Source: an uncultured Bacilli bacterium
GTDB taxonomy: Bacteria; Bacillota_I; Bacilli_A; RF39; UBA660
Length of the DNA: 64,000 nt
Direction of reading: 5' to 3'
Assembly: GCA_934096265.1 (NCBI GenBank)
Contig: CAKOLI010000001.1
Span: 77,512-141,511, forward strand
Shown here piece by piece: positions 15,120-48,367 of the stretch. Every line of letters begins with the position of its first letter. Position 1 is the first letter of the stretch. Below the pieces are notes generated by a model. It was given only the letters and a program-made list of their open reading frames with translations, was not told the DNA's origin and did no database searches. Position numbers and translations under genes: made by a program.

Positions 15120-15182
15120 AACAAAAACCCCTTGTTTTATTGCTTAATATGTGGTATATTAAGTATCAGTTTATAAAAACAC

Positions 15183-15407
15183 ACGCGGAAGACGTAGTTA
15201 AAACAAATTATTCATAGAGAACTTTCAAATAGGTGAAAAGAAAGTAATAATCTTTAACTAAAATCACTTCCAATGTTTTTAATTGATATGTAAATTAAAA
15301 CGGCAGTACCGTTATAACTATTAAGAGCGTAGATAATTCTATGAATTTAAGGTGGTACCGCGGAAAGTATAGTTCGTCCTTATACATAATTGTATAAGGA
15401 TTTTTTT
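15183..15407 (+). promoter_or_regulatory. T-box riboswitch, Ile specifier
   Basis: AGAGA and GGTGAAAA stem-I motifs. Candidate specifier is AAA-AUC-A at 15263-15265, just before the CUUCC/GGAAG base helix. T-box sequence AATTTAAGGTGGTACCGCGG. Terminator TCCTTATACA/TGTATAAGGA plus T7. Confidence 0.9.
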
Positions 15408-32563: not shown

Positions 32564-33849
32564 ATGAATTTAAATTATGCAATATTTAGAAGTCAACCAA
32601 TCATGACTATAAATAATTTGGCTGGAATAGGTTCTCATAACAAAAGAGAAAAACAGTCATATAAATCTAATCCAGATATTAAAAAAGAAATATCTAGTAA
32701 TAATATGGAATTAGTACCTCTAACATAAAAATATGTTAGAGGTTTTTATAATAAGACAATCGACTATAAAAAAGAATTTGAAGAAAGAATGAAAACAGAG
32801 AGGGAAGATGGGAAAAGAACATTTAGAGAAATGTTAGATAAAAGCAAAAATGTAGTTGCGGATGAACTTTTATTTACTGCAACTAATACTTTCTTTAAAG
32901 ATATGACAAGAGAAGATATAAAAGTTTGGGCTGATACTTGTATAGACTTTGTCTATAATGATTTAGGTTATACGAAATATCAGATATTACATGCAACAAT
33001 ATACTTGGATGAGAAAACTCCACATATTCATTGTGTATTAATCCCAATTGCAAAAAAGTTAGATAAAAGGAGTAATTCTGAAAGATATGCTATTTCAAAG
33101 AAACAATATATTAAAGACAAAAATCATTTATCCGAGTTGCAAGATAAGTATCATAAGAGATTAATTGGTAAAGGATATGATTTAGAAAGAGGAATTAAAA
33201 ATTCTGATAATGAAAATATTAATATAAAAGAGTTCAAAAAGATAACTAGAAAATTAAATAATGAACTAAATGTTAAAAATGAAAGATTAAATAAATCGCT
33301 CGAGGCTTTTAATGAGAAAATGAAAACACTTGTTAAATAAAGAGTATGTAAAAATAAAGAAAGATACTTTTGATAGTATGAACAATGTTATCAAAGAGTC
33401 TAAAAAAGTTATGGATATGCAACCTAAGTTAAATTATAGTTATAAAGAAATAGATTATTGCTCTTATAGTTATAGAAGTATAGAAAGACAGAAAAATAAT
33501 TTAGAAAATGAGATAGAATATTTGCAGTATAAGAATGAAAAGTTGGAAAATGAAAATAGAACTTTAAAAAACAAAAAAAAGCTATTTTAAAGGCAATAAA
33601 AACGTTTTTTAGACAGATACTATTATATTTGGTAATGATAAGGCAAAAGAAGCAACTACTAACGAAATAATAGCACATTATGATAATAAAAACTTTACTA
33701 GAAAAGATGTAGTTAATATATCATTAGATACTACAAAGGAAGATGAGTTATTTAATTATGTTGGAGTTGAAAAAGAATATGTTCGAATGAAACATTCGGA
33801 ATTAGATTATGATAGTAAGGGAAAAGATGATTTTGAATTAAGTAGATAA
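32564..33849 (+). pseudogene. MobV (Mob_Pre, pMV158 MobM-like) relaxase, decayed
   Basis: N-terminus MNLNYAIFRSQPIMTINNLAGIGSHNKRE. In-frame TAA at 32726-32728. Metal motif HATIYLDEKTPHIHCVLIP (HxDE...PHxH). Frame changes near 33330 and 33590 (track ORFs 32789..33340 and 33330..33590). Confidence 0.7.
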
Positions 33850-33884: not shown

Positions 33885-33912
33885 TTGACAAATATTAAAA
33901 GTATGCTAAAAT
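33885..33912 (+). promoter_or_regulatory. strong sigma-A promoter of the island operon
   Basis: TTGACA (33885-33890), 16 nt, TGCTAAAAT extended -10 (33904-33912). Confidence 0.7.
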
Positions 33913-33942
33913 ATAATTTAATTAATTTGAGGAGGAGACCGC

Positions 33943-34089
33943 ATGAAAAAAGATTCTGTAATGGAATTATTAGATTTAATCAAAAAAATCAGTGCTAGGA
34001 ATAAATATTATACTAACATTATTTACTCATGTTCTCTTTTAGACATAATTAGTAATAAGATAATAACGGTGACCAAAATTACATTATAA
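33943..34089 (+). CDS. 48-codon leader or small ORF
   Basis: GAGGAGG SD 7 nt before the ATG. Reads MKKDSVMELLDLIKKISARNKYYTNIIYSCSLLDIISNKIITVTKITL. Its stop codon lies inside the loop of the downstream terminator hairpin. Confidence 0.4.
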   Translation: MKKDSVMELLDLIKKISARNKYYTNIIYSCSLLDIISNKIITVTKITL

Positions 34090-34120
34090 TATAGTGTTTT
34101 TTGGCACCGATTATTTTTTT
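34067..34120 (+). terminator. intrinsic terminator/attenuator between the promoter and the RSH gene
   Basis: CGGTGACCAAAA (34067-34078) pairs with TTTTTTGGCACCG (34097-34109), giving 11 bp with one bulge. ATTATTTTTTT follows. Confidence 0.6.
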
Positions 34121-34137
34121 ATTTAGGAGGTGTTTTA

Positions 34138-35577
34138 GTGAATAATATTACGTTACAAGATTTACTAGAAAAATTAAAGGAATACAATCCAGATGAAATA
34201 GAGATTGTAAAAAAAGCTTATAATTATGCTGATAATTTACATTCTGGGCAAATGAGACAAAGTGGCGAACCATATATTAGTCATCCATTAAATGTTGCAT
34301 ATATTTTGGCAGATATGCATGCAGATAGAGATACAATATGTGCTGGTCTTTTACATGATACATTAGAAGATACTAACATCACAAAAGAGGATATCGCTCA
34401 TGATTTTAATCAAAATGTTGCCAATTTAGTTGATGGTGTAACAAAATTATCAAAAATGAATTTTTCTTCTAAACAAGATCAAAATTATGCAAATACAAGA
34501 AAAATAATAACAGGTATAACGGAAGATGTAAGAATAATTATAATTAAATTGGCTGATAGACTTCATAACATGAGAACATTACAATTTAAATCGGAATTTA
34601 AGCAAAAAGAAAATGCACTTGAAACTATGGAAATATTTGTTCCACTTGCTTATTATATAGGTGCTTATAGAATAAAATCAGAGTTAGAGGATTTATCATT
34701 ACAATATCTTAAACCGGATATGTATAAAAAAATAACTGAGAGAAAAATGAGATTGGAAGAATCAAGTGATGAGTGTTTAAAAGAAATGCTATATAAGATT
34801 GAAGCATTGCTAAATGCTAAAAATATACCAAATGAGATAAAGATAAGGACAAAGAATATTTATGGCATATACAAAAGACTAAATGAAGGTCATAAATTAT
34901 CTGATATTCATGATTTGTTAGCACTTAAAATAATGGTTGATGAAGTGGCGAATTGCTATTATACATTGGGGATGATTCATAAAGAATATCATCCAATAAA
35001 TGATAAATTCAAAGATTATATCTGTAATCCAAAAACAAACATGTATCAAAGCTTACATACAACTGTATTTGGACCTGATGATAGATTAGTTCAAACTCAA
35101 ATAAGAACATTTGATATGGATAAAGTAGCATCATTTGGATTGACAGCATATTGGGATGAACAAAAAGGAAAAGCAAGGGATGTAATGCAAGAGGATTTGA
35201 AACAAAAATTTCAATTCTTTAAATCACTAACTGAAATAAATTCTATGTTTGGTGATAACCAACAATTTGTTAATCAAGTAAAGACTGAACTATTTGCTGA
35301 TAGAGTTTACGTTTATACGACAAAAGGTGACATAATAGAATTACCTAAAGGAGCTACACCAATAGATTTTGCATATAAGATACATACTGATATAGGAAAT
35401 ACAATGGTTGGAGTATTTGTAAATGACGAATTTGTGCCAATTGATTATGTGTTGAAAAATAAGGATAGAGTTAGAATTGTTACTGATGAATTATCTTTTG
35501 GCCCTAGAGAAGATTGGATAGATAAAGCTCAAACGAGCTTAGCTAAAAGAAAAATAAGGGATTTTAATAAAAAGTAA
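34138..35577 (+). CDS. truncated long RelA/SpoT homologue (HD hydrolase + synthetase-like + TGS; no C-terminal regulatory domains)
   Basis: HD motifs GQMRQSGEPYISHP, LHDTLEDT and KLADRLHNMRT are intact. The synthetase region has RTKNIYGIYKRL, DLLALKIMV, NPKTNMYQSLHTTV and VQTQIRT (Gln where canonical ExQIRT has Glu). TGS segment VYVYTTKGDIIELPKGATPIDFAY. GTG start after AGGAGG. Confidence 0.85.
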   Translation: MNNITLQDLLEKLKEYNPDEIEIVKKAYNYADNLHSGQMRQSGEPYISHPLNVAYILADMHADRDTICAGLLHDTLEDTNITKEDIAHDFNQNVANLVDGVTKLSKMNFSSKQDQNYANTRKIITGITEDVRIIIIKLADRLHNMRTLQFKSEFKQKENALETMEIFVPLAYYIGAYRIKSELEDLSLQYLKPDMYKKITERKMRLEESSDECLKEMLYKIEALLNAKNIPNEIKIRTKNIYGIYKRLNEGHKLSDIHDLLALKIMVDEVANCYYTLGMIHKEYHPINDKFKDYICNPKTNMYQSLHTTVFGPDDRLVQTQIRTFDMDKVASFGLTAYWDEQKGKARDVMQEDLKQKFQFFKSLTEINSMFGDNQQFVNQVKTELFADRVYVYTTKGDIIELPKGATPIDFAYKIHTDIGNTMVGVFVNDEFVPIDYVLKNKDRVRIVTDELSFGPREDWIDKAQTSLAKRKIRDFNKK

Positions 35578-35586
35578 GGAGGAAGT

Positions 35587-36447
35587 ATGAATAATAATAT
35601 TATAATGGCTATTGCTGAAGAAATTTCTGCATTAATTCCAGATTGTTGTGGAGTTACTTTGGGTGGCTCTAGAATGAATGAATTAGAAGATGAAAAATCA
35701 GATGTAGAAATGTATTTTTATACACATAAAGGAGCACCTTCAGTAGATAGCATAACAAAAGCGTTATCAAAATTTAATGCACAACATAAAAGAACTGATA
35801 CTTTTTTATGGGAAAATGATATGCCATGGGGACCACATTCTTTCTTTGTAATTGACGGTTTATATTTTGAAATTGGATATAGGAACATTGATAATATTAA
35901 AAATAGAATTATTTTTTACGAAGAAGGAAATGTTGCTCCTATTCAAGATTGCCATGACTTAGGATTAGGTTATATGCCTAGTGGATTAGCAGCGTCAGTA
36001 GCTTCTGAAAAAATTTTAATTAAAGAGTCAAGGGAATTGTTAGAATTAAAAGAAGTGGCTATGTCATTTTCAAAAAAATTGTTTTTTGATTTAAAAGAAG
36101 AATATTTTGAAACAGCAAGATCATTGATAGATGGTAAACTTTTATCAGCGACTGAAAGAGCAGATATTTTCTTATATGAATCAATATCTGGAAGAATAAT
36201 TAGATGCTTGATGGTAATGGCTTTTGCAATGGGAAATAAACACTTTCCAGGGGATAAGTGGAATGAGGTGCTATTATTAAGAACCGATTGGAAAAATAAA
36301 GAAGAATTTTTAAATTTGTTAAAAGAACATTTACTATTTAAAGCAACAACAAAAGAAGAATTTATTAATAAAAGAAATATTTTGTATAAAGCATTTAAAT
36401 TAATTGAAATGGATACAGCTGAGGTGGATAATGGGGAAATTATATAA
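35587..36447 (+). CDS. Pol-beta-superfamily nucleotidyltransferase (DUF4037-like architecture)
   Basis: LGGSRMNELEDEKSDVEMYFY fits the hG[GS]x9-13Dh[DE]h NTase signature. A helical C-terminal domain follows. Confidence 0.65.
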   Translation: MNNNIIMAIAEEISALIPDCCGVTLGGSRMNELEDEKSDVEMYFYTHKGAPSVDSITKALSKFNAQHKRTDTFLWENDMPWGPHSFFVIDGLYFEIGYRNIDNIKNRIIFYEEGNVAPIQDCHDLGLGYMPSGLAASVASEKILIKESRELLELKEVAMSFSKKLFFDLKEEYFETARSLIDGKLLSATERADIFLYESISGRIIRCLMVMAFAMGNKHFPGDKWNEVLLLRTDWKNKEEFLNLLKEHLLFKATTKEEFINKRNILYKAFKLIEMDTAEVDNGEII

Positions 36448-37447
36448 TAATTCATTGTCTTTTGTAAATGATTGGAAAGAACCAACAAATGACGATATAA
36501 TGAAAAGCAGGTTAGAATCAAAGAAAATTAGTGTGGTAATACCTGTCTATCATCCTAGATATTTAAAAGAAGTATTAATGCATTTGTCTAAATTAGGATT
36601 TATTTATGAAGTAATTACAGTTTTTGATAGTCATGATGATAATTCTAATTTAATTATAGATGATTATAAATTTAAATTACTTATAGTTCAACATGACAAA
36701 AATCGTAATGCACCTGCTGCTAATAATACAGGAGCTACTTATGCTACAGGAGATATTATTTTATTTTTAGATCAGGATATGATTTTATCACCTAAATTTA
36801 TATCTAATGCATTAAATTTATTATATGTAAATCAATATAAAGGTCTGGTAGTTGGCTTTAGGGATACAGTGAATTATGAAAATGTTCCTGATTTATTAAA
36901 TTGGAAAGAATCTTCTTATTCTAATGATTGGAGAATTAAAACACTTATTAGTGATGAATATTTAGATTTAACTGTTTCTAATTGTGGGACTTCATCTAAT
37001 AATTGTAATACAGGAAAAATCTTAGAAATTTATAAGCAAAGTAATAAGTTTAGAAATTTAGGTATAAAAAAAGAATCGACTATTGGATTTTGGGATTTGG
37101 CTTGTATGGTAATATCACATACATTAGCAATTCCAAGACAAGAATTTATTGATATAGGTGGATTCCCAGAATGGATTATTGGTTGGGGTGGAGAAGATAT
37201 TGCACTTGGTTTCTTAGCAGTGTCAAAACATCTCTTTGTCATCCCAGTAGAAGTTGGCTCATATCATATAAAACATGATCCACATAGTGGTAGCGAAGAA
37301 AAAAAATGGCAAGAAATGCGTGAAAACTTAAAAAAATATAAATCTTGGACTTTGTCAATAGATGAATTTCAACCTATAGCTGAAAATGCAATCAAAAAAA
37401 GAGCAAAAATTTTATTTGATTCTTCAAAAAATAAATTTTATGAATAA
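36431..37447 (+). CDS. GT-A fold glycosyltransferase (family 2-like with WGGED C-terminal motif)
   Basis: ISVVIPVYH..., GDIILFLDQDMIL (DxD) and GWGGEDIALGF. The ATG at 36431 after GAGGTGG overlaps the upstream stop. Confidence 0.8.
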   Translation: MGKLYNNSLSFVNDWKEPTNDDIMKSRLESKKISVVIPVYHPRYLKEVLMHLSKLGFIYEVITVFDSHDDNSNLIIDDYKFKLLIVQHDKNRNAPAANNTGATYATGDIILFLDQDMILSPKFISNALNLLYVNQYKGLVVGFRDTVNYENVPDLLNWKESSYSNDWRIKTLISDEYLDLTVSNCGTSSNNCNTGKILEIYKQSNKFRNLGIKKESTIGFWDLACMVISHTLAIPRQEFIDIGGFPEWIIGWGGEDIALGFLAVSKHLFVIPVEVGSYHIKHDPHSGSEEKKWQEMRENLKKYKSWTLSIDEFQPIAENAIKKRAKILFDSSKNKFYE

Positions 37448-37463
37448 AGGAATGATTTAAATT

Positions 37464-38381
37464 ATGGAAAAAGAATTATTATTTCAACATATAATAAATG
37501 ATTATGATATAAAAGGAAAAATATCTTCATCTAAGATAAATTCATTTGAACAATATCCTCATATTTTTAGACTAAAATCCAATAATCGTTCTTTCTTTAT
37601 AAAACAAGTAGAAAAAAATAGAATTAATTGTGAAGATCTTAATGTATTATATTCAGATTTAACAAATATAACTTGTATTGAAAAACCTATTCTTACAAAA
37701 GAAAAAAAATATGTATCACTATTTGCTGATAAAATAATTCTTTTATATGAAGAATTAGAACAAATAGAAAAAAATCCAGATTCAATATGGTGGTCTAAAT
37801 GTTTAAGTAATATTCATAATATATGTGTAAATAACAGATATATGGCTTATTTTCAAAATAATTTTTATAAACAAACAATCGATTTACTGAATAGTGCTAA
37901 AAAATTTATGGAGCCTGAAATAGAAGAAAAAATTATAAAATTACTAATGGAATTAGATGATAAATGTTTAGAACTTAACAAAAATATAGTCTTATGTCAT
38001 AATGATCCTTATGATCTTAATGTAATGGCTATTAATGGTGAATATAGATTAATTGATACAGATGGAATGGGACTATCTCCAAAAGAGTATGATATTCAAA
38101 GATTAATGTGGAATCATTTAATTAATTCAAATGAAGTAGATAATTCGCTTTCTTTTTGGTGTTCATTTAAAGATAATTATGAATTAAATGTAATTGAAAA
38201 AATAGATACTAATTTATTAAAACAATTATATATTTTAGATTTAATAAGAACAACTTCTTGGTTGTACATTGTTTGTAATGATTTAACAAGGAAAGATATA
38301 GAAAGACAAAAAGAACAATTAAACTTATTTGAAAGAAGCTTTTACAATGATAATCACGCAAAAATTCTAAAAAAAATATAA
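37464..38381 (+). CDS. APH/choline-kinase/CotS-family phosphotransferase
   Basis: Brenner motif VLCHNDPYDLNV (HxDxxxxN) followed by LIDTDG. Confidence 0.75.
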   Translation: MEKELLFQHIINDYDIKGKISSSKINSFEQYPHIFRLKSNNRSFFIKQVEKNRINCEDLNVLYSDLTNITCIEKPILTKEKKYVSLFADKIILLYEELEQIEKNPDSIWWSKCLSNIHNICVNNRYMAYFQNNFYKQTIDLLNSAKKFMEPEIEEKIIKLLMELDDKCLELNKNIVLCHNDPYDLNVMAINGEYRLIDTDGMGLSPKEYDIQRLMWNHLINSNEVDNSLSFWCSFKDNYELNVIEKIDTNLLKQLYILDLIRTTSWLYIVCNDLTRKDIERQKEQLNLFERSFYNDNHAKILKKI

Positions 38382-38394: not shown

Positions 38395-39273
38395 ATGAAA
38401 GGAATAATATTAGCTGGAGGGAAAGGTACACGGCTTTATCCTTCTACAATTGCTGTGTCAAAACAATTATTACCAGTTTATGATAAACCAATGATTTATT
38501 ATCCGTTATCAGTTTTGCTTATGCTTGAAATAAAAGATATTTTAATAATTTCAACAAAAAAAGATATAACTAATTATAGATATTTACTGGGAGACGGGAA
38601 AAAACTCGGTATTAATATCTCATATAGTGTTCAAAAGGAAGCAAGAGGAATAGTTGATGCATTTATTATAGGTAAACAATTTATTGGAAAAGATAATGTG
38701 TGTTTAATCTTGGGGGATAATATATTTTATGGTGATGATTTATCAAAAATTTTAAATAAGGCAAAAATAGAAAATGAAGGAGCAACTATATTTGGTTATC
38801 GTGTAAAAAAACCAGAAAATTTTGGAGTTGTTCAATTAGATGCAAGTGGTAAAGTAGTATCAATAGAGGAAAAACCAAAAAATCCTCAATCAAATTATGC
38901 TATTCCAGGGTTATATTTTTATAATAATGATGTAATAAAAATTTCAAAGCAGATTGAAATGTCTGAAAGAAAAGAACTTGAAATTACATCACTTAATAAT
39001 GAATATTTGAAAAATAATAATTTAAAAATTCAAATATTGGATGAGGATAATTTTTGGATTGATGCTGGAACTTCAAATAATTTATTAGAAGTATCAAATT
39101 TTGTTAAAAATTTTCAATTAAAACAAAAAAAGTATATAGCTTGTATTGAAGAAATCTCGTGGAAAAATGGATTTATAAATAATAAACAACTAAAAAAAGA
39201 AGCGGAGAAATTAAGTTGCACAGATTATGGTAAATATATATTTTCAATTTTGGGAGACGATAGTAGTGAGTAA
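38395..39273 (+). CDS. rfbA: glucose-1-phosphate thymidylyltransferase
   Basis: MKGIILAGGKGTRLYPSTIAVSKQLLPVYDKPMIYYPLS is a near-textbook RmlA N-terminus. Confidence 0.92.
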   Translation: MKGIILAGGKGTRLYPSTIAVSKQLLPVYDKPMIYYPLSVLLMLEIKDILIISTKKDITNYRYLLGDGKKLGINISYSVQKEARGIVDAFIIGKQFIGKDNVCLILGDNIFYGDDLSKILNKAKIENEGATIFGYRVKKPENFGVVQLDASGKVVSIEEKPKNPQSNYAIPGLYFYNNDVIKISKQIEMSERKELEITSLNNEYLKNNNLKIQILDEDNFWIDAGTSNNLLEVSNFVKNFQLKQKKYIACIEEISWKNGFINNKQLKKEAEKLSCTDYGKYIFSILGDDSSE

Positions 39274-40285
39274 ATTTTTAATAACAGGTGGAGCTGGATT
39301 TATAGGAACTAATTTTTTACATTATGCAGTAAATAAATATCCAACAGATTTTTTTGTCTGTGTAGATTCATTAACATATGCTGGAAATTATAATAATATA
39401 AAGGAATTAGAAACAAAAGAAAATTATAAATTTTATAAAATTGATATAAGAAATCAGGAAGATATATTAGAATTATTTATAAGTGAAAAATTTGATTATG
39501 TTATTAATTTCGCAGCTGAATCTCATGTTGATAATTCTATAAAAAATCCTAATATATTTGCTGAAACAAATATATTAGGTACTATGACTTTGCTTAATGC
39601 AACAAGACATATGAATGAAAATACTGAATATCATATTCAAAGATTCCATCAAGTGTCAACAGACGAAGTATATGGTGATTTACCACTTAATAGATTAGAT
39701 TTAAAATTCAATGAAAATAGTAAAATTATAACATCTAGTCCATATTCAGCATCTAAGGCAGGAGCAGATTTACAATTGCTAGCTTATTTTAAAACATATA
39801 ATTTGCCAATAACAATTTCTAGATGTTCAAATAATTACGGTCCATATCAACATCCAGAAAAGTTAATTCCATTAGTAATAAAGAATGCTATCAACAATAA
39901 AAATATACCTGTTTATGGAACAGGTGCTAATATAAGAGATTGGATACATGTGTATGATCATAATGTGGCGATTGATTTAATTGTTAGAAACGGAAAAAAT
40001 GGTGAAATATACAATATAGGTGGTAACACTGAAAAAAACAATTTAGAAGTTGTAAAAACAATTTTAAAATATTTAAATAAAAATGAAAATTTAATTACTT
40101 TTGTTAAAGATAGACCAGGACATGATAAAAGATATGCTATGAATACAACTAAAATTGAAGAAAAACTTGGATGGAAATGCAAATATAATTTTGAAGATGG
40201 TATTAATGAAACAATTGAGTGGTATTGTAATAATCTTAATTGGTTAAATAATTTTAAAATGGAGAAATGCAATGAAGAAAAATAA
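39266..40285 (+). CDS. rfbB: dTDP-glucose 4,6-dehydratase
   Basis: ITGGAGFIGTNF Rossmann motif, SPYSASKAGADL (YxxxK) and STDEVYGD. GTG at 39266 overlaps the rfbA stop. Confidence 0.9.
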   Translation: MSKFLITGGAGFIGTNFLHYAVNKYPTDFFVCVDSLTYAGNYNNIKELETKENYKFYKIDIRNQEDILELFISEKFDYVINFAAESHVDNSIKNPNIFAETNILGTMTLLNATRHMNENTEYHIQRFHQVSTDEVYGDLPLNRLDLKFNENSKIITSSPYSASKAGADLQLLAYFKTYNLPITISRCSNNYGPYQHPEKLIPLVIKNAINNKNIPVYGTGANIRDWIHVYDHNVAIDLIVRNGKNGEIYNIGGNTEKNNLEVVKTILKYLNKNENLITFVKDRPGHDKRYAMNTTKIEEKLGWKCKYNFEDGINETIEWYCNNLNWLNNFKMEKCNEEK

Positions 40286-41381
40286 TAATGATATCATTGT
40301 TAATGTTACTAAATCATATTTGCCACCATTAGAAGAATATGTTAATGAAATATCAATATTGTGGGAAAATCATTATTTAACTAATTATGGACAATTAAAT
40401 AATAAATTAGTTAATGATATTAAGAATTATTTAAAATTAGATAATATACATTATGTTACCAATGGAACAATATCTTTACAATTAGCTATAAATGCACTGA
40501 ATATAGAATCTGGTGAAATAATAACAACACCGTTTACATATATTGCAACATTATCATCAATATTATGGCAGAGATGTACACCTGTTTTTGTAGATATTAA
40601 TGAGAAAGATTTTAATATTGATGTAACAAAGATTGAAAAAAAGATAACTACTAATACGAAAGCTATAATGGCTGTTCATTGTTTTGGGATTCCTTGTAAT
40701 GTGGTAGAAATTGATAATATTGCTAAAAAAAATAATTTAAAAGTAATATATGATGCAGCACATTCTTTTGGTACTATGCTCAATAATAAATCAGTATTAA
40801 GTTATGGCGATATATCATGTTGTAGCTTTCATGCAACTAAAGTTTTTCACACTATTGAAGGTGGACTCTGTGTTGTTAATAATGATAATGTGAATAAAAA
40901 AATGGAAGCAATAAAAAAATTTGGAATGGAAGATGGAAAATTTGCATACATAGGATTAAATGCGAAAAATTCTGAATTACATGCTGCAATGGGACTTTGT
41001 GTGCTAAGGCATATAGACGAGATAATAAAAATGAGAAAAAGTAAATTCGAATTATATAAAAAAAGTATATCAGATAAAATATATATACCTACATTACCAC
41101 AAAATTTTAAATATAATTATATTTATTTTCCAGTAGTATTTTCAAATGAAAGTCAATTGCTTTTAACTCTAAAACTTTTAAATCAAAAAAATATTTTTCC
41201 AAGAAGATATTTTTATCCATGTGTTAATAGTGCTTCATATATTCAGAAAAGTTATGAGACTCCAATAGCTGAAAGTCTTTCAAAAAGAATTATTTGTCTT
41301 CCATTAGATACTTATATTTCGAATGAAAAAATTATTGAAATTTGCAACATTATTAATAGGGTTATAGAATCTGAAAATTAG
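40272..41381 (+). CDS. DegT/DnrJ/EryC1/StrS-family PLP sugar aminotransferase
   Basis: 369 aa with the SFHATK PLP-lysine motif. Overlaps the rfbB stop. Confidence 0.85.
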   Translation: MKKNNNDIIVNVTKSYLPPLEEYVNEISILWENHYLTNYGQLNNKLVNDIKNYLKLDNIHYVTNGTISLQLAINALNIESGEIITTPFTYIATLSSILWQRCTPVFVDINEKDFNIDVTKIEKKITTNTKAIMAVHCFGIPCNVVEIDNIAKKNNLKVIYDAAHSFGTMLNNKSVLSYGDISCCSFHATKVFHTIEGGLCVVNNDNVNKKMEAIKKFGMEDGKFAYIGLNAKNSELHAAMGLCVLRHIDEIIKMRKSKFELYKKSISDKIYIPTLPQNFKYNYIYFPVVFSNESQLLLTLKLLNQKNIFPRRYFYPCVNSASYIQKSYETPIAESLSKRIICLPLDTYISNEKIIEICNIINRVIESEN

Positions 41382-41458: not shown

Positions 41459-41486
41459 TTGACAAAACAAGATTTAATGCTATAAT
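41459..41486 (+). promoter_or_regulatory. consensus sigma-A promoter for ValRS copy 1
   Basis: TTGACA (41459-41464), 16 nt, TGCTATAAT (41478-41486). There is no T-box between it and the ATG at 41521. Confidence 0.7.
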
Positions 41487-41520
41487 AAACAGAAATCTAA
41501 AAATTTAAGGGGGAATACTC

Positions 41521-44010
41521 ATGTTAGGCAAAAGATTTAATCTTGAAAATGAAAAGGAAATGCAAAAATTATGGGAAGAAAAAGAAGCCTATAAATTTAA
41601 AGGTGTAGATGAACGACCAGTTTATTCAGTCGATACACCTCCTCCAACAGTAAGCGGTAAGTTACATGTTGGACATATATTTTCATTCACTCAATCTGAA
41701 ATGCTTGTTAGGTATCACAGATTAAAAGGTGAAAATGTATATTATCCATTTGGATTTGATGACAATGGTTTGCCAACAGAAAGATTGGTTGAAAGAGAAG
41801 AGGGTATATTTGCAAAAGATTTACCTAGAAGTGAATTTATTGAAAAATGTACTGCTACAAAAGATAAATATATTAAAGAATTCCAAGATTTATTTAAGCG
41901 TTTAGGAATCAGTGCTGATTGGGATTTGGGATATGATACTATAAATGAATTGTCTAGAAAAGTTTCACAAAGATCATTTATAGATTTAGTAAAAAAAGGA
42001 AAAGCGTATAGAAAGGAAATGCCAGTTTTATGGTGTCCTTGCTGCCAAACTTCTATTGCACAAGCAGAACTTGAAAATAAAGATGTAAAAAGTTATTTCA
42101 ATTATATTAATTTTTCTGTTGATAATAAAGATTTAGAAATAGCTACAACAAGACCTGAGTTTTTAGGTGGATGTGTTGCAATATTTGTAAATCCTAATGA
42201 TGAAAGATATAAAGATTTAATAGGAAAAACTGCTACTGTTCCGTTATATAATAATCAAGTTCCAATCATTGCAGATGAAAAAGTTGCAATAGACAAAGGT
42301 ACTGGCGCTGTTATGTGCTGTACATTTGGAGATCAAACTGATATGGAATGGCAAAAAGAATATAATCTTCCAATTAAGAAAGTAATGCAGGCTGATGGAA
42401 CAATTAATCCAGAAGTTGCTATAATTGGTGGAATGAAAACGCTTGATGCAAGGATGAAGATTGTTGAAAAATTACAAAAACAAGGTCTATTAGTAAAAAG
42501 TGAAAAAATTGAACATTCTGTAAGTACGCATGAGAGATGTGGAAATGAAATAGAAATAATTAATTCTCCACAATGGTACATTGACATTTTAAGTATAAAA
42601 GATGAATTGATTAAAGCAGCAGATGAAATTAATTGGCATCCAGAATCTATGAAAACTAGATATTTAGATTGGGTTAGCAATTTAAAATGGGATTGGTGCA
42701 TATCAAGGCAAAGATATTTTGGAGTACCATTTCCAGTATGGTATTGTAAAGAATGTGGAGATGTAATGATTTCTGAAGATAAAGAATTACCATTAAATCC
42801 ATTAGAACATAACCCACATGGTGCTTGTAAGTGTGGATGTAAGGAATTTATACCTGAAACTGCTGTAATGGATACATGGGCAACATCATCTGTATCACCA
42901 TTCATTAATATGAAATATGGTGAAGATGACGAAAGAAAATTTTTATATCCTATGAGTATGAGAAGCCATGCACATGAAATAATAAGAACGTGGACATTCT
43001 ATTCAATTGTAAAAAGTTTATATCATACTGGACAAGTACCTTGGAAAGATTTAATGATTTCAGGATTTGTACTTGCTAAAAAAGGCGAGAAAATAAGCAA
43101 ATCTAAAAATAATGCTAAGATGTCTCCTAATGACTTATTAGATACTTATGGTGCTGATATGATAAGATATTGGACTGCATCAAATAAATTAGGAACAGAT
43201 ACATGGTTTGATACAAAAGATATAGAAAGTTCAAAGAGATTTATGAACAAATTATGGAATTCTGCTAAATTTGTAGATATACACATCAAGGATGCTGATT
43301 TAAGTGAAGAAGCAGAATTGCAATCTATTGATAAATGGTTAATCTCTAGATGTCACGAAACATTTGAAAAATATCAACAACAAATGGAAAATTATGAAAT
43401 GGGCTTAGCAAGACAAGAAATTGATAAATTTTTCTGGAACGATTTATGTGATAATTATTTAGAAATGGCAAAAGAAAGATTATATAATCCTGATAATAAA
43501 TATGGAGATTCCCAAAAAGCTGCTCAACAAACTTTAGCAACTGTATTCCTTGAAGTATTAAAAATGTATTCACCTTTTGTTCCACATATTACAGAATATA
43601 TTTATCAAGAATTCTATAAATCTAAACTTAAAGATGAACTTCTTTCTACAAGTAAATTCACAGAGTTACCTTATGATAAAAAATATATAGAATTTGGTGA
43701 TGCAATGAAAAAAGTAGTAGGAGATGTTCGTAAATATAAAACTGAACGTAATTTATCAATGAAAAAACCAATTGAAGAATTGAAAATATCAACGACATTG
43801 GATAATATTAGATGTTTAAGAGATTCAATTTTAGATATTCAAAGTTGTACTCGTGCTGAACATATTGACGTTGAGGAAAGTGATGAAACAGAAGTAACAA
43901 TTACTGGAAGAAATATTGAAGATAGTTACGTAGAAGATGCAATAGATGCACCAGTTCAAGAAGAAGCAAAAGTTATGAAACTTGTTAGAAAAGATAAGAA
44001 AAATCAATAA
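41521..44010 (+). CDS. valS: valine--tRNA ligase, copy 1 (PPPTVSG / CTFGDQTD type)
   Basis: 829 aa. DTPPPTVSGKLHVGHIFSF (HIGH), ATTRPE and GTGAVMCCTFGDQTD in CP1/editing, KISKSKNN (KMSKS), Zn cysteines and an acidic C-terminal tail. Confidence 0.85.
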   Translation: MLGKRFNLENEKEMQKLWEEKEAYKFKGVDERPVYSVDTPPPTVSGKLHVGHIFSFTQSEMLVRYHRLKGENVYYPFGFDDNGLPTERLVEREEGIFAKDLPRSEFIEKCTATKDKYIKEFQDLFKRLGISADWDLGYDTINELSRKVSQRSFIDLVKKGKAYRKEMPVLWCPCCQTSIAQAELENKDVKSYFNYINFSVDNKDLEIATTRPEFLGGCVAIFVNPNDERYKDLIGKTATVPLYNNQVPIIADEKVAIDKGTGAVMCCTFGDQTDMEWQKEYNLPIKKVMQADGTINPEVAIIGGMKTLDARMKIVEKLQKQGLLVKSEKIEHSVSTHERCGNEIEIINSPQWYIDILSIKDELIKAADEINWHPESMKTRYLDWVSNLKWDWCISRQRYFGVPFPVWYCKECGDVMISEDKELPLNPLEHNPHGACKCGCKEFIPETAVMDTWATSSVSPFINMKYGEDDERKFLYPMSMRSHAHEIIRTWTFYSIVKSLYHTGQVPWKDLMISGFVLAKKGEKISKSKNNAKMSPNDLLDTYGADMIRYWTASNKLGTDTWFDTKDIESSKRFMNKLWNSAKFVDIHIKDADLSEEAELQSIDKWLISRCHETFEKYQQQMENYEMGLARQEIDKFFWNDLCDNYLEMAKERLYNPDNKYGDSQKAAQQTLATVFLEVLKMYSPFVPHITEYIYQEFYKSKLKDELLSTSKFTELPYDKKYIEFGDAMKKVVGDVRKYKTERNLSMKKPIEELKISTTLDNIRCLRDSILDIQSCTRAEHIDVEESDETEVTITGRNIEDSYVEDAIDAPVQEEAKVMKLVRKDKKNQ

Positions 44011-44083
44011 AACTTATCTTTTTTTCTGCAATTTATCTAATTTTATTGAATATATAAGGAAAATCTGGTATAATATTTGCAAC

Positions 44084-44311
44084 TGCTGAGAACAAGAGGA
44101 GTAGATTACCAATTTATTATAGAGAGCAAATGTTTGGTGTAAATTTGCATAATAGGTAATTGAAGGTAGCTTGGGAGCATATTTTCTGAACTATTAGTAA
44201 GAAATTACGTATCGCTGCGTTAAAGCATTAAGCTGCATATTAATAAAATAATATGAATTAAGGTGGTACCGTGGACTTCAAGTTCATCCTTTGATTAGGA
44301 TGGGCTTTTTT
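44084..44311 (+). promoter_or_regulatory. T-box riboswitch, probable Val (GUA) specifier
   Basis: Promoter TTGAAT-17-TGGTATAAT (44046-44074). AGAGAG and GGTGTAAA stem-I motifs. Specifier loop UGAAG-GUA-G (GUA at 44166-44168) lies before the CUUG/CAAG helix. T-box GAATTAAGGTGGTACCGTGG. Terminator CATCCT/AGGATG plus a T run. Confidence 0.85.
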
Positions 44312-44332
44312 ATATGAAAGGAAGGAATTAAA

Positions 44333-46750
44333 ATGTTAGATAAGAAGTACAATTCACTTGAAAAAGAAGAAAAATGGTTAAATTATTGGAAAGAAAATAA
44401 AATATATGAATTTAAACCAGATCAAAGAAAGGTATATTCAATAGATACACCTCCTCCAACAGTTAATGGTAAAATACATATTGGGCATATATTTTCTTAT
44501 TCACAAGCAGAAATGATTGCAAGATATAAAAGAATAAGCGGATATAATGTGTTTTATCCATTTGGCTTTGATGATAATGGCCTTCCTAGTGAAAGATTAG
44601 TAGAAAAGGAACAAGGTAAAAAAGCACATGAAATTGGTAGAGAAAACTTCTCTAAATTATGCTATGAAACAACAGACAAATATGAAGCTGAATTTCAAGA
44701 TTTATTCTCTAAACTTGGTGTAAGTACAGATTGGAGTATGCACTATAAAACAGTAAGCCCATCAACAATAAAGATAAGTCAAAATTCATTTTTGGATTTA
44801 ATAGAGAAAGGACATTGTTATCATAAAGAAAGCCCTGCATTATGGTGTAATGAATGCTTAACATCCATTGCTCAGGCTGAATTAGAAACAAAGACCATTA
44901 AAACAACATTTAATTATGTAAATTTTGAAACTGTCGAAGACGGTGAAAAGTTTACTATTGCTACAACAAGACCTGAATTGATGCCTGCCATTGTTTGTGT
45001 ATTTGTAAATCCTAATGATGAGAAGAATAAACATTTAATAGGAAAAACTGCACATATTCCAGTAATTAATGTTGATGTTCCAATTATGGGTGATGAAAAA
45101 GTTGCAATTGATAAGGGTACAGGTATTGTTATGTGCTGTACATTTGGAGATCAAACAGATATAGAATGGTGGAAAAAATATAATTTACCACTTAAATATA
45201 TATTTACAAATGATGGAAAAATAATTGATTCTGTGCCAAATTATGGTGGCTTAAAAATAAAAGAAGCAAGAAAGCAAATCGTAAATGATTTACAAGCAGG
45301 TGGATACATTGTTAAAATTGAAGAGTTAGAACATGAAGTACAAACACATGAAAGATGTGGCAGAGAAGTAGAATATACGTTAATGAAACAATGGTTTATT
45401 GATATAATGAGCCATAAAGAAGATTTCTTGAGAATTGGAAATGAAATTAATTGGTATCCGTCACACATGCACAACAGATATGAAGAATGGGTTAATAATG
45501 TTGCATGGGATTGGTGCATATCAAGACAAAGATATTTTGGTGTACCATTTCCAGTATGGTACTGTAAAGAATGTGGTGAACCTATATTTGTATCAAAAGA
45601 ACAATTACCTGTTAATCCGTTAACTGATACTCCACCAGTTGAAAAATGTTCTAAGTGTGGCTGTAAAGAGTTTATACCTGAATCCGATGTTATGGATACG
45701 TGGGCAACTTCATCAGTTACACCACTTATTAATATGAAATATGGCGAAAAAGATAATTACGAATCTATTTTAAAACCTATGAGTTTGCGTAGTAATGCGT
45801 CTGAAATAATAAGAACTTGGGATTTTTATACTATTGTAAAAAGTTATTATCATTTTGGTATTAGACCTTGGGATAATGTTATGATTTCAGGATTCGTAAT
45901 GGCAAACAAAGGTGAAAAAATAAGTAAAAGTAAGGGAAATTCAAAAGTTGAGCCTTTAGATTTAATAAAACGATATTCTGCAGATGTTGTAAGATATTGG
46001 GCTGCATCTGGAAGGTTAGGAACAGACATTACATATAGTGAAGAAACATTACTTCGTGGTAAAAAATTAGTTAATAAAATATGGAATGTTTCTAAATTAA
46101 TTCAAATGCACCTTCAAGATTATCAAGATAAAGACTTTGATGATTTTGAATATGTTGATAAATGGATCTTAGGTAACTTTATTAAGATGGAAAAAGAATA
46201 TATAAAATATTTAGATAATTATGAAATAGGATTAGCTTTAAATATTTTAGAAAAGTTTTTCTGGAATTTCTGTGATAACTATATAGAAATTGTTAAACAT
46301 AGATTGTATAGACCAGAAGAATTCGGTGAAAAGGCAAGATACTCTGGACAAAAAACTGTCTATATGTTACTTTATAAATTATTACAAGATTTTAGCGTTT
46401 TCTTCCCATTCATTACTGAAGAAATATATCAAGACATATATCATGATATGAAATCAATACATATTACTGAAATTAAACCTTTAAATTACTCATTTGATGA
46501 TGAAATGTTGAATGGTGATTTAATGTGTGAAATAATAAGTGCAGTAAGAGGTGAAAAGTCTAGTAACAATTTATCATTAAAAACAACTGTTAAGAAATTA
46601 GATATAGATTGTTCAGCTGGCATAAAAGATGCAATTAAGCAATCTGAGAAAGATTTTAAAGCAACATTATTTATAGAAAAATTAATTTTAAATGACATAG
46701 AAAAAGACTATAAAATTAATAAAGTTGTTTTAGATACTGAAAATTCATAA
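44333..46750 (+). CDS. valS: valine--tRNA ligase, copy 2 (T-box regulated)
   Basis: 805 aa. DTPPPTVNGKIHIGHIFSY, ATTRPE, GTGIVMCCTFGDQTD and KISKSKGN. Roughly 55-60 percent identical to copy 1 by eye. Confidence 0.88.
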   Translation: MLDKKYNSLEKEEKWLNYWKENKIYEFKPDQRKVYSIDTPPPTVNGKIHIGHIFSYSQAEMIARYKRISGYNVFYPFGFDDNGLPSERLVEKEQGKKAHEIGRENFSKLCYETTDKYEAEFQDLFSKLGVSTDWSMHYKTVSPSTIKISQNSFLDLIEKGHCYHKESPALWCNECLTSIAQAELETKTIKTTFNYVNFETVEDGEKFTIATTRPELMPAIVCVFVNPNDEKNKHLIGKTAHIPVINVDVPIMGDEKVAIDKGTGIVMCCTFGDQTDIEWWKKYNLPLKYIFTNDGKIIDSVPNYGGLKIKEARKQIVNDLQAGGYIVKIEELEHEVQTHERCGREVEYTLMKQWFIDIMSHKEDFLRIGNEINWYPSHMHNRYEEWVNNVAWDWCISRQRYFGVPFPVWYCKECGEPIFVSKEQLPVNPLTDTPPVEKCSKCGCKEFIPESDVMDTWATSSVTPLINMKYGEKDNYESILKPMSLRSNASEIIRTWDFYTIVKSYYHFGIRPWDNVMISGFVMANKGEKISKSKGNSKVEPLDLIKRYSADVVRYWAASGRLGTDITYSEETLLRGKKLVNKIWNVSKLIQMHLQDYQDKDFDDFEYVDKWILGNFIKMEKEYIKYLDNYEIGLALNILEKFFWNFCDNYIEIVKHRLYRPEEFGEKARYSGQKTVYMLLYKLLQDFSVFFPFITEEIYQDIYHDMKSIHITEIKPLNYSFDDEMLNGDLMCEIISAVRGEKSSNNLSLKTTVKKLDIDCSAGIKDAIKQSEKDFKATLFIEKLILNDIEKDYKINKVVLDTENS

Positions 46751-46792
46751 TACCTATAAAATTAAATAATTGTAATAAGTTAGGGGATGTTT

Positions 46793-47475
46793 ATGATAAG
46801 CAACAATTCTAATTTTGGATATGATAAGTATCACAGAAAAAAACAATTAAAGAATTTAATTTAAATCAAACTATGTATTCTTTGGTAACAGGTGAAAGTA
46901 AAGATGATTTAGATTTAAAAGCAACAGGCTTTATGGGAAACAATATGAGTTATAATGATTTAATAATATCAGCAGACAAATTAGCCCAAGTCTTCTATAA
47001 TATTGGAATAAAAAATGGAGATAATGTGGCAATATTGACTATAAGTATGCCAATAGTTTAACAGTCATTGTTATCTCTTTCCAAAATTGGGGCTACTATG
47101 TCTTGGATAGACCTGAGATCTAAACCGAAAGATGTAGTAAGATACATTAATAGTAGTAATTGTAAAACAATAATAGTGTTTGAAGATATGCTTCCATTAA
47201 TAGAGCCAATAATAGATGAAAATGATGTCAAAAAAGTTGTGATAAGTTCACCAAAAAGATTATTTATCTCCTGTTGTTAAGATGCTAGCTACATTAAAAG
47301 GTAAGAAAGACGGTGAAAAAGTGGTATTAACAAAAATACGATTCCTATGTTAGAGGGTATTAAAATAGATGGTTATGCTATGATTAGACCAATATTAGCA
47401 CAGGGAAATATTATTGATTCTACTAAAAAAATAAAAAGATTAATATATAATAATAAAAAATCTTTAGATGTTTAA
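46793..47475 (+). pseudogene. adenylate-forming (AMP-binding) enzyme, decayed
   Basis: N-terminal acyl-CoA-ligase-like segments (track ORFs 46873..47061 and 47068..47280) share a frame and are split by a TAA at 47059-47061. A frameshift lies near 47270 (...PVVKMLATLKGKKDG...). The C-terminal tail IPMLEGIKIDGYAM is joined directly, so the central ~300 codons are missing. Confidence 0.6.
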
Positions 47476-47478: not shown

Positions 47479-47910
47479 CTAATGATTTTTTATTATTTCA
47501 TCAACAGAACAATTAAAGTTTTTTGCTAATTTATAAATATAAACTGTTGGTATTAATATTATTCCTAATTCATATTGAGTATAAGCTGATACTGAAATTT
47601 TTAAAATTTTCGCAATCTCTTTTTGAGTTAGATTTACTTTTTTTCTTAATAAACGCAAATTATTTCCAATCACTTTGATAGTTATATTTTTAACTGGATA
47701 TTCAAAATTATTGATTTTTGACAGTCCAGTTATGTAATCAATGCTACATTTATAATAATTACTTAATAAAAATAATTTTCTTAGTGGAATTATATTAGTT
47801 CCTAATTCCCATCCTGTATATGTAGTTCTACTAACTCCCAATATTTTTGCTATTTCTTCTTGAGTTAGGCTGTTTTCTAATCTCAATTTTTTGATATTTT
47901 TGAACTTCAT
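47479..47910 (-). CDS. XRE-family regulator with two tandem HTH domains
   Basis: LTQEEIAKILGVSRTTYTGWELG and LTQKEIAKILKISVSAYTQYELG. Confidence 0.8.
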   Translation of the reverse strand: MKFKNIKKLRLENSLTQEEIAKILGVSRTTYTGWELGTNIIPLRKLFLLSNYYKCSIDYITGLSKINNFEYPVKNITIKVIGNNLRLLRKKVNLTQKEIAKILKISVSAYTQYELGIILIPTVYIYKLAKNFNCSVDEIIKNH

Positions 47911-47920
47911 ATTTTCTCCA

Positions 47921-48367
47921 TTAGTTTAAATCTTTGTCTTTAGTTCTACCAACTATCCAATCCATTGAAATTTTATATTTTTTGCATATAGTGTAGATAG
48001 TTATTGTGTTGACTAAGTAATTACCAGTTTCGTAACCACTATAAGTTGTTTGAGATATGTTACAATCATCTGCTAATTTTTGTTGTGAAATATTTAATTC
48101 TTTTCTTAAATTTTTTAAGTTTTTACCGATTTTATTTTTATCACACTCAATTTTAGGATATTTTTTATTTTTTCTTGTAAGACCGGAAATATAATCTAAT
48201 GAATAACCATATAAATTAGAAAATCTAATAAGTTTATTAAAAGGTATGGTATCACCAGCAGTCTCCCATCCTGAAATTGTTTGTTTTGTTACTCCAAAGA
48301 TGTATCCTAATTCTGTTTGAGTCATTTCTAATTCTTCTCTACAAAATTTTATATTGTTGTTATACAT
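47921..48367 (-). CDS. XRE-family regulator with two tandem HTH domains (paralogue)
   Basis: MTQTELGYIFGVTKQTISGWE and ISQQKLADDCNISQTTYSGYETG. Confidence 0.8.
   Translation of the reverse strand: MYNNNIKFCREELEMTQTELGYIFGVTKQTISGWETAGDTIPFNKLIRFSNLYGYSLDYISGLTRKNKKYPKIECDKNKIGKNLKNLRKELNISQQKLADDCNISQTTYSGYETGNYLVNTITIYTICKKYKISMDWIVGRTKDKDLN

Follow-up and report, generated by a model that had tools for sequence, protein, structure and literature searches.

A tandem pair of valyl-tRNA synthetase genes with predicted split control beside an exchangeable enzyme cassette in uncultured gut Bacilli

Introduction

Pairs of aminoacyl-tRNA synthetases (aaRS) for the same amino acid are well known from Bacilli, for example thrS/thrZ and tyrS/tyrZ of Bacillus subtilis and ileS1/ileS2, and a second ileS or tyrS copy also gives tolerance to mupirocin or D-Tyr. 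Other synthetases serve self-resistance within biosynthetic clusters, such as AgnB2, a LeuRS (agrocin 84), SerRS2 (albomycin), the IleRS MupM (mupirocin), and the ThrRS BorO (borrelidin). Paired synthetases with a T-box-controlled reserve and aaRS immunity genes in clusters are thus established kinds. Here we describe a locus in a stretch of 64,000 nucleotides, called the window, from an uncultured Bacilli bacterium (contig CAKOLI010000001.1, positions 77,512–141,511), in which two genes for valyl-tRNA synthetase, ValRS1 and ValRS2, stand in tandem downstream of a cassette of small-molecule enzyme genes. The reading that suits the locus best, to which we give a probability of roughly one half, is a split-regulated ValRS pair coupled to the small-molecule cassette, probably as target protection. 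Two aspects are new: a tandem two-synthetase pair for valine from two lineages with a swappable cassette fixed to one copy, and a previously undescribed association of ValRS, across phyla, with genes for an aminoglycoside nucleotidyltransferase (ANT)-like nucleotidyltransferase (NTase), a family-2 glycosyltransferase (GT2), an aminoglycoside phosphotransferase (APH)-like kinase and amino-sugar enzymes. ValRS is among the least often duplicated and most stable aaRS (PMC5388404), and aaRS genes have been reported in tiarin clusters (10.64898/2025.12.02.691738).

Like thrS/thrZ, tyrS/tyrZ and ileS1/ileS2, the pair gives a Firmicute two synthetases for one amino acid, one of them a reserve that a T-box would induce; unlike them, it concerns valine, the genes are in tandem, the predicted constitutive ValRS1 has no T-box (thrS has one), and a swappable cassette adjoins. 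The locus also resembles the self-resistance synthetases: an aaRS is linked to small-molecule enzymes, another aaRS for the same amino acid is present, and other taxa show the linkage again with their genes in a different order. It differs from them in that neither a product nor an inhibitor is known, ValRS1 is retained through cassette exchange, the linked ValRS of some taxa is T-box-regulated and possibly the sole copy, and the locus belongs to chromosomal core DNA. A further relative is NCBIfam family NF000540 (alt_ValS), the alternative ValRS of high-GC bacteria, often located on large plasmids; it shares with our pair a PRK13208-like architecture lacking the C-terminal coiled-coil arm, but both ValRS1 and ValRS2 score under its 900-bit cut-off. 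Capsule (cps) and O-antigen loci likewise hold unrelated gene sets in one chromosomal slot, recombine in conserved flanks and pass between related species, whereas the cassettes described here hold soluble enzymes only, with no flippase, polymerase or exporter, and types B and C are sets of radical S-adenosylmethionine (radical-SAM), ATP-grasp and pyridoxal phosphate (PLP) enzymes. Lastly, the predicted folds of two cassette proteins match those of ANT(4'), LinB, APH(9) and AmiN, but at 10–17% identity, and unlike lone ANT/APH resistance genes they are co-operonic with GT2 and a nucleoside diphosphate (NDP)-amino-sugar pathway.

Two Valyl-tRNA Synthetases with Predicted Split Control

For both proteins (Table 1) the best model is NCBIfam NF009687/PRK13208, matched over the full length at 1012.6 bits (ValRS1) and 992.4 bits (ValRS2) against a curated cut-off of 738 bits, whereas for alt_ValS the scores are only 701.6 and 715 bits. 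Both keep the HIGH motif (HVGH in ValRS1, HIGH in ValRS2), the KMSKS motif (KISKSKNN and KISKSKGN), the TTRPE and GTGxVMCCTFGDQTD motifs of the editing domain (CP1) and the Cys clusters, and their catalytic and editing motifs align with the counterparts in Thermus thermophilus (Tth) ValRS (1GAX). ValRS1 further carries a C-terminal extension of 40–45 aa, acidic and then basic, that is missing from ValRS2 and from clostridial homologues. We considered this tail as a cassette-specific substrate and rejected the idea, since the tail does not follow the type of cassette.

The two genes are preceded by very different control regions. The promoter of ValRS1 is the sole 12/12 match in a 14-kb scan and lies about 28 nt from the start codon, and a leader RNA is absent. 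ValRS2 is preceded by a promoter-like site and a leader matching Rfam RF00230 at 44079–44294 over model positions 1–219, that is, at full length (146.7 bits; gathering score 93). Stem I presents the specifier loop GAA-G-GUA-G, which holds the Val triplet GUA and the conserved purine, the T-box sequence AAGGUGGUACCGUGG is present, and a terminator with a T-run follows at 44280–44307. With score, specifier and purine, T-box sequence and terminator all found, the sequence places the leader in the T-box class, and orthologous T-boxes stand 5' of ValRS2 in five of the related loci (L001, L002, L096, L098, L109; loci are cited by such handles throughout).

An earlier note on this DNA, made from the letters alone, had proposed two full-length ValRS that look catalytically and editing competent, the first with a constitutive promoter, no leader and a C-terminal tail, the second behind a T-box with a GUA specifier. 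All of this is borne out by the model scores, the motifs, the 1GAX alignment and the control regions above. Its identity figure of 55–60% was slightly too high, the measured value being 52% (394/765, BLASTP), though its view that the duplication is not recent stands; this identity and the bootstrap tree below exclude a recent tandem duplication.

From the control regions we infer the regulatory behavior of the pair. Transcription from a consensus promoter would make ValRS1 always present, and uncharged tRNA-Val(UAC) would pair with the GUA specifier of the ValRS2 leader, stabilize the antiterminator and block the terminator, so that ValRS2 is transcribed. The cell would then hold a constant ValRS1 and a reserve ValRS2 that is switched on when tRNA-Val charging drops. 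As in back-up pairs of the thrS/thrZ type, both copies are under purifying selection and the Val T-box stands only on ValRS2. It is very likely that the window encodes two functional ValRS paralogues, one constitutive and one induced by demand.

Some variations around these genes may be recorded here. In L001 (12518–15652) the T-box is followed by a dUTPase gene and then by ValRS2 in one operon, in L103 (435–3561) a gene for an HD-domain protein overlaps ValRS2, and L085 (20658–22281) has an inverted partial copy of an HD gene together with a 290-aa ValRS fragment. A lone 76-aa open reading frame (ORF) just 3' of ValRS1 in L103 (12672–12899) matches Pfam Val_tRNA-synt_C (3e-10), the coiled-coil tRNA-binding arm of canonical ValRS, which is missing from enzymes of the PRK13208 type. 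The product may work in trans; neither the window nor the remaining loci yielded a copy. The class I aaRS adjoining in L058 and L061 were considered as canonical ValRS and rejected, because at 1037–1044 aa and 25–28% identity they are probably IleRS.

Table 1. Features of the ValRS locus and its flanks, in window coordinates.
Feature	Positions	Strand	Description
Mob/Pre remnant	32564-33590		Frameshifted plasmid relaxase remnant 5' of RSH; ORFs of 54, 183 and 86 aa
RSH	34138-35577	+	Truncated long RelA/SpoT homologue, Rel N-terminal half plus TGS; 479 aa; Pfam HD_4, RelA_SpoT, TGS
Cassette gene 1	35587-36447	+	Predicted ANT(4')/LinB-like small-molecule nucleotidyltransferase; NTase fold with DUF4037/HEPN-like C-terminal domain
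Cassette gene 2	36404-37447	+	GT2; Pfam Glycos_transf_2, 2e-17; weak NCBIfam matches to EpsD and MftF-like glycosyltransferases
Cassette gene 3	37464-38381	+	Predicted APH-family small-molecule kinase; HNDPYDLN...IDTD (HxDxxxxN...D) motif; weak Pfam APH/Choline_kinase match
RmlA	38395-39273	+	Glucose-1-phosphate thymidylyltransferase; TIGR01207, 406.5 bits (cut-off 360.65)
RmlB	39227-40285	+	dTDP-glucose 4,6-dehydratase; TIGR01181, 443 bits (cut-off 365)
DegT	40272-41381	+	DegT/DesI-like dTDP-4-keto-6-deoxyhexose aminotransferase; Pfam DegT_DnrJ_EryC1, 7.7e-78; last cassette gene
ValRS1 promoter	41459-41486	+	TTGACA-16-TGcTATAAT; 12/12 consensus sigma-70 match, extended -10
ValRS1	41521-44010	+	PRK13208-type valine--tRNA ligase, full-length; 829 aa
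ValRS2 promoter-like site	44046-44074	+	TTGAAT-17-TGgTATAAT; 10/12 match with TG; site of T-box leader and ValRS2
T-box leader	44079-44307	+	Rfam RF00230; Val (GUA) specifier; intrinsic terminator
ValRS2	44333-46750	+	PRK13208-type valine--tRNA ligase, full-length; 805 aa; paralogue under predicted T-box control
AMP-binding remnant	46790-47328	+	Degraded 5' remnant of acyl-CoA ligase-like gene with in-frame stops; 3' end of conserved module

Origin and Conservation of the Two Copies

Relatives of these ValRS are encoded by approximately 577 species in the GTDB genome set. Outside the clade of the window they are single-copy genes, mostly of Clostridia, with 54–58% identity to ValRS1 and 48–53% to ValRS2, and about 60 of the 72 clostridial homologues have a T-box motif roughly 100 nt upstream. 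Since most clostridial homologues carry a T-box, the PRK13208-type ValRS is an ordinary T-box-regulated enzyme of many Firmicutes; the suggestion that the subtype is unusual for this phylum is contradicted by its wide distribution there.

In a bootstrapped neighbor-joining (NJ) tree rooted on a single distant outgroup, an alt_ValS protein, ValRS1 joins the ValRS of Clostridia at 95% bootstrap, and ValRS1 and ValRS2 as sisters receive 0%. ValRS2 groups weakly (61%) with the ValRS of the low-GC contigs L105, L112 and L113. On this tree the two copies come from two old lineages and are not sister paralogues. Of the 339 alignment columns with a conservation of 90% or more in the clostridial set, ValRS1 has 32 fixed changes, mostly conservative, and ValRS2 has 51, which include H485S (beside the equivalent of Tth D490), K389A, K378H and D510N. 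By sequence comparison ValRS1 is the conservative copy that lost the T-box carried by its closest relatives, and ValRS2 is the derived copy that kept one.

Orthologues of both genes occur in every clade relative examined, at 74–99% (ValRS1) and 80–98% (ValRS2) identity to the copies of the window. The ratio of nonsynonymous to synonymous substitution (dN/dS) is 0.07–0.14 for diverged ValRS1 pairs and 0.04–0.11 for ValRS2, indicating purifying selection. A degenerate or relaxed ValRS1 is excluded by these low ratios and by its more conservative sequence. The two gene trees are largely congruent, and that of ValRS1 follows the ValRS2 and species tree, not the cassette type.

An Exchangeable Enzyme Cassette Upstream of ValRS1

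Seven genes precede ValRS1 in the window: RSH, two proteins without significant Pfam match, GT2, RmlA, RmlB and a DegT/DesI-like aminotransferase (Table 1). The first of the two formerly unannotated proteins has an intact catalytic motif (invariant GGSR...SDVEMYFY plus E95) and weak Pfam matches to DUF4037 and the MTPAP palm. Its AlphaFold2 (AF2) model, with a predicted local distance difference test (pLDDT) score of 91.8, has as top Foldseek matches ANT(4') (6un8 and 1kny, kanamycin nucleotidyltransferase) and LinB (3jyy), which points to a small-molecule nucleotidyltransferase. The family is tiny, with 83 clusters among 5.8e9 proteins. DUF4037 has been described as the HEPN-like C-terminal domain of aminoglycoside nucleotidyltransferases (PMC3710099). 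The model of the second protein (pLDDT 90.7) is closest to APH(9)-Ia (3i0o), the amicoumacin kinase AmiN (6sui) and YtaA (2q83), suggesting a kinase. The DegT-like protein has its best NCBIfam match in PLP_DesI, under the cut-off, and together RmlA, RmlB and DegT are predicted to form a dTDP-4-amino-4,6-dideoxyhexose pathway. To judge by its gene content this cassette, which we call type A, is a set of soluble small-molecule enzymes, and no polymerase was found in the window copy.

In every context recovered ValRS1 lies directly 3' of an enzyme cassette on the same strand, and among about 15 distinct contexts there is no empty site with ValRS1 lacking a cassette. Three unrelated cassette types are exchanged, even within one species. 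Type A, the ancestral one, holds the two formerly unannotated proteins, GT2 and DegT, with or without RmlA/RmlB and a PNP_UDP nucleosidase (window, L005, L008, L096/97, L100, L101, L103, L107–L111). Type B (L002–4, L006, L007, L009, L085–95, L098) has a C26 amidotransferase/hydrolase, a CapK-like ligase, a SufS-like PLP enzyme, a U32 protein, a MoaA/viperin-like radical-SAM enzyme, an unknown 381-aa protein and a RimK-type ATP-grasp enzyme, and in some cases also a SPASM or B12 radical-SAM enzyme and a 3-deoxy-D-arabino-heptulosonate 7-phosphate (DAHP) synthase. Type C, from L001, is a PanD-like protein with two radical-SAM enzymes. In L108 (5980–7617, one strain) an insertion of about 1.6 kb lies between the type A cassette and the ValRS1 promoter.

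The replacement can be delimited to the base by comparing the window (type A) with L086 (type B) of the same species. The two strains have 98.6% DNA identity over a stretch that begins precisely at 41459 and runs to 47328; their RSH genes match at 88% right up to the stop codon, and from there to 41459 nothing can be aligned. The breakpoints are therefore the RSH stop codon and the -35 box of ValRS1, with which position 41459 coincides exactly. The type B proteins of L007 and L002 are 88–98% identical, whereas ValRS1 of L007 is about 99% and that of L002 about 82% identical to the copy in the window; cassettes so similar beside diverged ValRS1 genes indicate that they move between species of the clade. 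The far-side neighbor of the cassette also varies, being RSH, ValRS2 (L095, L103), a NUDIX gene (L096), a cytidine deaminase gene (L100) or a UvrD helicase gene (L008), and ValRS2 itself is found either 3' of ValRS1 or 5' of the cassette. Because these neighbors vary, the invariant unit is the cassette plus ValRS1, not RSH, a sugar operon and the synthetase pair. RSH is the usual but dispensable 5' neighbor: five contexts lack it (L008, L095, L096, L100, L103), which rules it out as an obligatory partner and dissolves the RSH-sugar operon that the earlier note had treated as a unit. The pair is also conserved independently of the particular operon upstream in the window, which is part of what that note had itself named as speaking for plain housekeeping paralogues.

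Such housekeeping paralogues form a serious rival explanation, although we regard it as rather doubtful. ValRS1 would be the basal enzyme and ValRS2 a starvation-inducible back-up, subfunctionalised in the ordinary way, and the cassette would be an unrelated, strain-variable set, making for instance a secondary metabolite or a glycan of the spore or surface, in a recombination hot spot within translation genes. Vertical inheritance and purifying selection of both copies agree with it, as do a ValRS1 left unchanged by the cassette swap, the clustering of aaRS genes around the locus in the clade, and an exchange between conserved flanks that resembles capsule and O-antigen loci; the kinase is also similar to YtaA, a spore-coat kinase, and the sugar genes are like sps genes. 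It does not account for the absence of an empty site in all those contexts, and a surface-glycan role sits poorly with cassettes in which no flippase, polymerase or exporter occurs. The strongest evidence against it comes from outside the clade.

Linkage of ValRS and Cassette in Distant Bacteria

Three of the most distant members of the nucleotidyltransferase family were looked up, and metagenome contigs were scanned with the family alignment. At all clade loci, and at all six non-clade loci with enough flank, a ValRS of PRK13208 or alt type lies within about 5 kb of the type A nucleotidyltransferase. The six show at least four different arrangements, in varied orientations, at GC contents of 33–62%. 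In L104 (GC 62%) the order is alt_ValS, kinase, epimerase, NTase and GT2 in a single tight operon, with the synthetase first; this ValRS is a member of alt_ValS (1325.9 bits), about 35% identical to ValRS1 and ValRS2. L105 (GC 33%) has tRNA-Val, ValRS, kinase, NTase, GT2, epimerase, DegT, a further GT2 and two ABC exporter genes, and L112 and L113 (GC 34–37%) have kinase, NTase, GT2, DegT, tRNA-Val, T-box and ValRS. L106 (GC 41%) has RmlA, followed by NTase, GT2, RmlB, kinase and DegT, and then a convergent T-box and ValRS; in L115 (GC 61%) ValRS, NTase and GT2 lie on mixed strands.

By our estimate a random gene would lie within 10 kb of valS at well under 1% of positions, and with six loci of shuffled order the linkage is not attributable to chance. 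For so rare a set of NTase, GT2 and kinase genes, inherited synteny is likewise very unlikely, which is the main difficulty for the housekeeping pair. Functional coupling usually shows itself in this way, as linkage that persists through rearrangement and across phylogenetically distant lineages. It is not general to this type of ValRS, because tblastn with all cassette proteins gave no meaningful matches to cassette genes at the 72 clostridial ValRS loci. On the sampled loci, the cassette needs a ValRS neighbor and ValRS does not need the cassette.

A tRNA-Val(UAC) gene stands directly 5' of ValRS in the sister lineage, at 6054–6128 in L105, 5210–5282 in L112 and 6061–6133 in L113. The T-box of L112 and L113 lies between tRNA gene and ValRS, and L105 has a T-box-like leader under the Rfam threshold. 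In the clade of the window, ValRS1 sits between the cassette and the T-box of ValRS2, the slot held by the tRNA-Val gene in L112 and L113. Accessory alt_ValS genes were also seen within enzyme operons on large plasmids, where they may mark further ValRS-linked small-molecule clusters: that of Streptomyces sp. NBC_01724 (L118) holds radical-SAM, amidinotransferase-family, valS, hydrolase, methyltransferase and two NUDIX genes, and that of Variovorax sp. SRS16 plasmid 3 (L119) holds aminotransferases, an amidohydrolase and a VOC protein with alt_ValS.

These arrangements also bear on a biosynthetic role, in which ValRS1 would supply Val-tRNA or Val-AMP to the cassette enzymes, for example for acylating a 4-amino sugar. 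Precedents are MshC, a CysRS paralogue that ligates Cys to GlcN-Ins, and the tRNA-dependent steps in valanimycin and pacidamycin biosynthesis. The tight linkage of ValRS and amino-sugar pathway in several phyla would suit such a role, and so would the tRNA-Val gene inside the module in L105, L112 and L113, the synthetase at the head of the L104 operon and the alt_ValS genes inside plasmid enzyme operons. Yet no aminoacyl-tRNA-utilising enzyme of the Fem, MprF, CDPS, PacB or PEARL type was recognized in any cassette, ValRS1 is conservative and keeps its full editing and anticodon-binding domains, unlike paralogues of the MshC type, and any cellular ValRS could give Val-tRNA, which makes the linkage needless. 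We consider this role improbable.

Proposed Coupling of the Pair to the Cassette

A split-regulated ValRS pair coupled to the cassette is the reading that best joins these observations. That ValRS and the cassette are functionally linked at all seems to us slightly more probable than the reverse; the narrower claim, protection of the target against a compound directed at ValRS, is tentative and on its own rather unlikely. The linkage of type A to ValRS in unrelated bacteria suggests that the product or substrate of the cassette acts on the ValRS/tRNA-Val step. The cassette might make or detoxify a ValRS inhibitor of sugar or nucleotide type, and the two-ValRS arrangement would keep tRNA-Val charged in the presence of such a compound. 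Nucleotidyl, phosphoryl and glycosyl transfer, by ANT, APH and glycosyltransferases, are the three classical group-transfer chemistries of pro-drug self-protection and resistance. Genes for nucleotide-hydrolysing enzymes recur around the module (the RSH HD domain, NUDIX, dUTPase, HD protein, deaminase and PNP-like nucleosidase), a circumstantial point in favor of a nucleotide-like compound. As for which copy would be insensitive, adjacency favors ValRS1, and the derived substitutions near the active site together with the ValRS2-like partner in the sister lineage favor ValRS2. A bolder version, that type A makes a glycosylated or nucleotidylated molecule targeting ValRS with the linked ValRS as immunity or bypass, and that cassettes A, B and C are a diversifying arsenal against tRNA-Val charging in gut Bacilli, is more doubtful still.

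The idea that one ValRS copy is tied to the upstream operon, for immunity or biosynthesis, had already been raised in the earlier note. Its linkage part holds, since ValRS stands beside the sugar-type cassette in distant loci; ValRS1 does not co-vary with the operon and is kept beside other cassettes. Compared with the self-resistance synthetases, the conserved aaRS–enzyme linkage across taxa and an extra copy (two ValRS genes in the window and its relatives) are both present.

Several points weigh against coupling and protection. The aaRS does not co-vary with the cluster as self-resistance synthetases do: ValRS1 is about 99% identical (98.6% at the DNA level over ValRS1–ValRS2) in strains with the unrelated cassettes A and B and is thus not tuned to one product, and it is also the more conservative copy. 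The ValRS linked to the cassette is under T-box control of its own in L106, L112 and L113, and in L105, L112 and L113 a tRNA-Val gene precedes it; the linked ValRS there looks like a housekeeping enzyme and may be the sole copy. The window cassette has no transporter, no recognizable aminoacyl-tRNA-dependent enzyme and no known scaffold-forming enzyme. The clustering of aaRS genes in the clade is strong, and some of the adjacency could be inherited synteny. The NJ tree has a single distant outgroup, so that long-branch attraction may have affected the placement of ValRS2. A literature search returned no ValRS-directed natural product or inhibitor and no ValRS self-resistance gene or cluster, and we know of no natural ValRS inhibitor.

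Target-directed genome mining relies on signs of just this kind, here a compact, rare gene set that tracks ValRS across phyla, and for this reason the coupling hypothesis is directly testable. A ValRS-targeting product of the cassette would be the first natural ValRS inhibitor. Even with an unrelated cassette, the locus shows that entire enzyme cassettes are exchanged within a species, in an uncultured lineage that is common in the human gut, and it presents a Rel homologue with a conserved substitution in the synthetase site.

Genomic Setting and Neighboring Genes

The window is chromosomal, with an IleRS gene behind a T-box (AUC), dnaK, pepF, dnaJ, mtaB and a LeuRS gene, and its GC content is uniform at 25–33%, the module being no different from the rest. 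The closest genomes, assembled from metagenomes of human, rabbit and deer guts, carry the label "uncultured Bacilli bacterium"; ValRS1 variants at 98–100% identity turn up very commonly in metagenomes of the gut, with contigs reaching 1.4 Mb. Genes for MetRS, CysRS, GlyRS, TrpRS, GatCAB, AspRS, IleRS and LeuRS cluster around the locus in the clade.

The earlier note had placed both ValRS genes, together with RSH and the sugar operon, on a mobile resistance or immunity island. The Mob/Pre remnant upstream, the disrupted AMP-binding gene and two Xre-type regulators downstream are what could be said for such an arrival. In strain L107, however, which is 97% identical, homology begins only at 34097 and the Mob/Pre remnant is absent; it is therefore a strain-specific scar, and it lies outside the module. 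The module itself, RSH-cassette-ValRS1-ValRS2, is present in all relatives with a divergence that tracks the species, as expected for chromosomal, vertically inherited genes, and its GC equals that of the window. Megablast of the stretch from 32 to 48.5 kb of the window against plasmids gave no relatives, and scans of viral contigs with the ValRS1 and nucleotidyltransferase alignments gave no viral ones; on these searches a plasmid or phage origin was rejected. These observations contradict the island, to which we give next to no credence. On a role in anti-phage defence, PADLOC returned no more than a generic radical-SAM/pVip likeness in a single type C gene and a weak RSH match, and the idea was set aside.

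RSH matches B. subtilis Rel (6yxa) at E = 2e-134 over residues 4–479, with about 50% identity across its HD, synthetase and TGS domains, and it keeps intact HD/ED hydrolase motifs. All seven orthologues (window, L001, L002, L005, L006, L007, L009) have Gln in place of the catalytic synthetase Glu (Bsu E324), a residue whose loss abolishes (p)ppGpp synthesis; all seven also end just after TGS and do not qualify as bifunctional long RSH (Rel). By these sequence features RSH is probably a relative of Rel with hydrolase activity only and a TGS domain that binds tRNA, and part of the translation-gene cluster.

Just 5' of RSH, at 33885–34125, a near-consensus promoter (TTGACA-16-TAAAAT) and a strong ribosome-binding site drive a 48-aa ORF (33943–34089), followed by an imperfect hairpin with a T-run before the RSH start. 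The stretch is unconserved in relatives; it may act as a leader or belong to the plasmid remnant. At the other end, homology to L086 and L085 stops at 47328, within the AMP-binding gene that is intact (605 aa) 3' of ValRS2 in L086–L094; two genes for double helix-turn-helix regulators of Xre type follow on the minus strand (47479–48367), indicating an insertion or rearrangement. Elsewhere in the window the IleRS gene at 15425–18511 stands behind a second T-box (15174–15384), which scores 105.3 bits and has the specifier AUC (Ile). The 1028-aa enzyme scores about 900–920 bits against the MupA/MupB mupirocin-resistance models, under their 1900-bit cut-off, and is of the long, type-2-like form.

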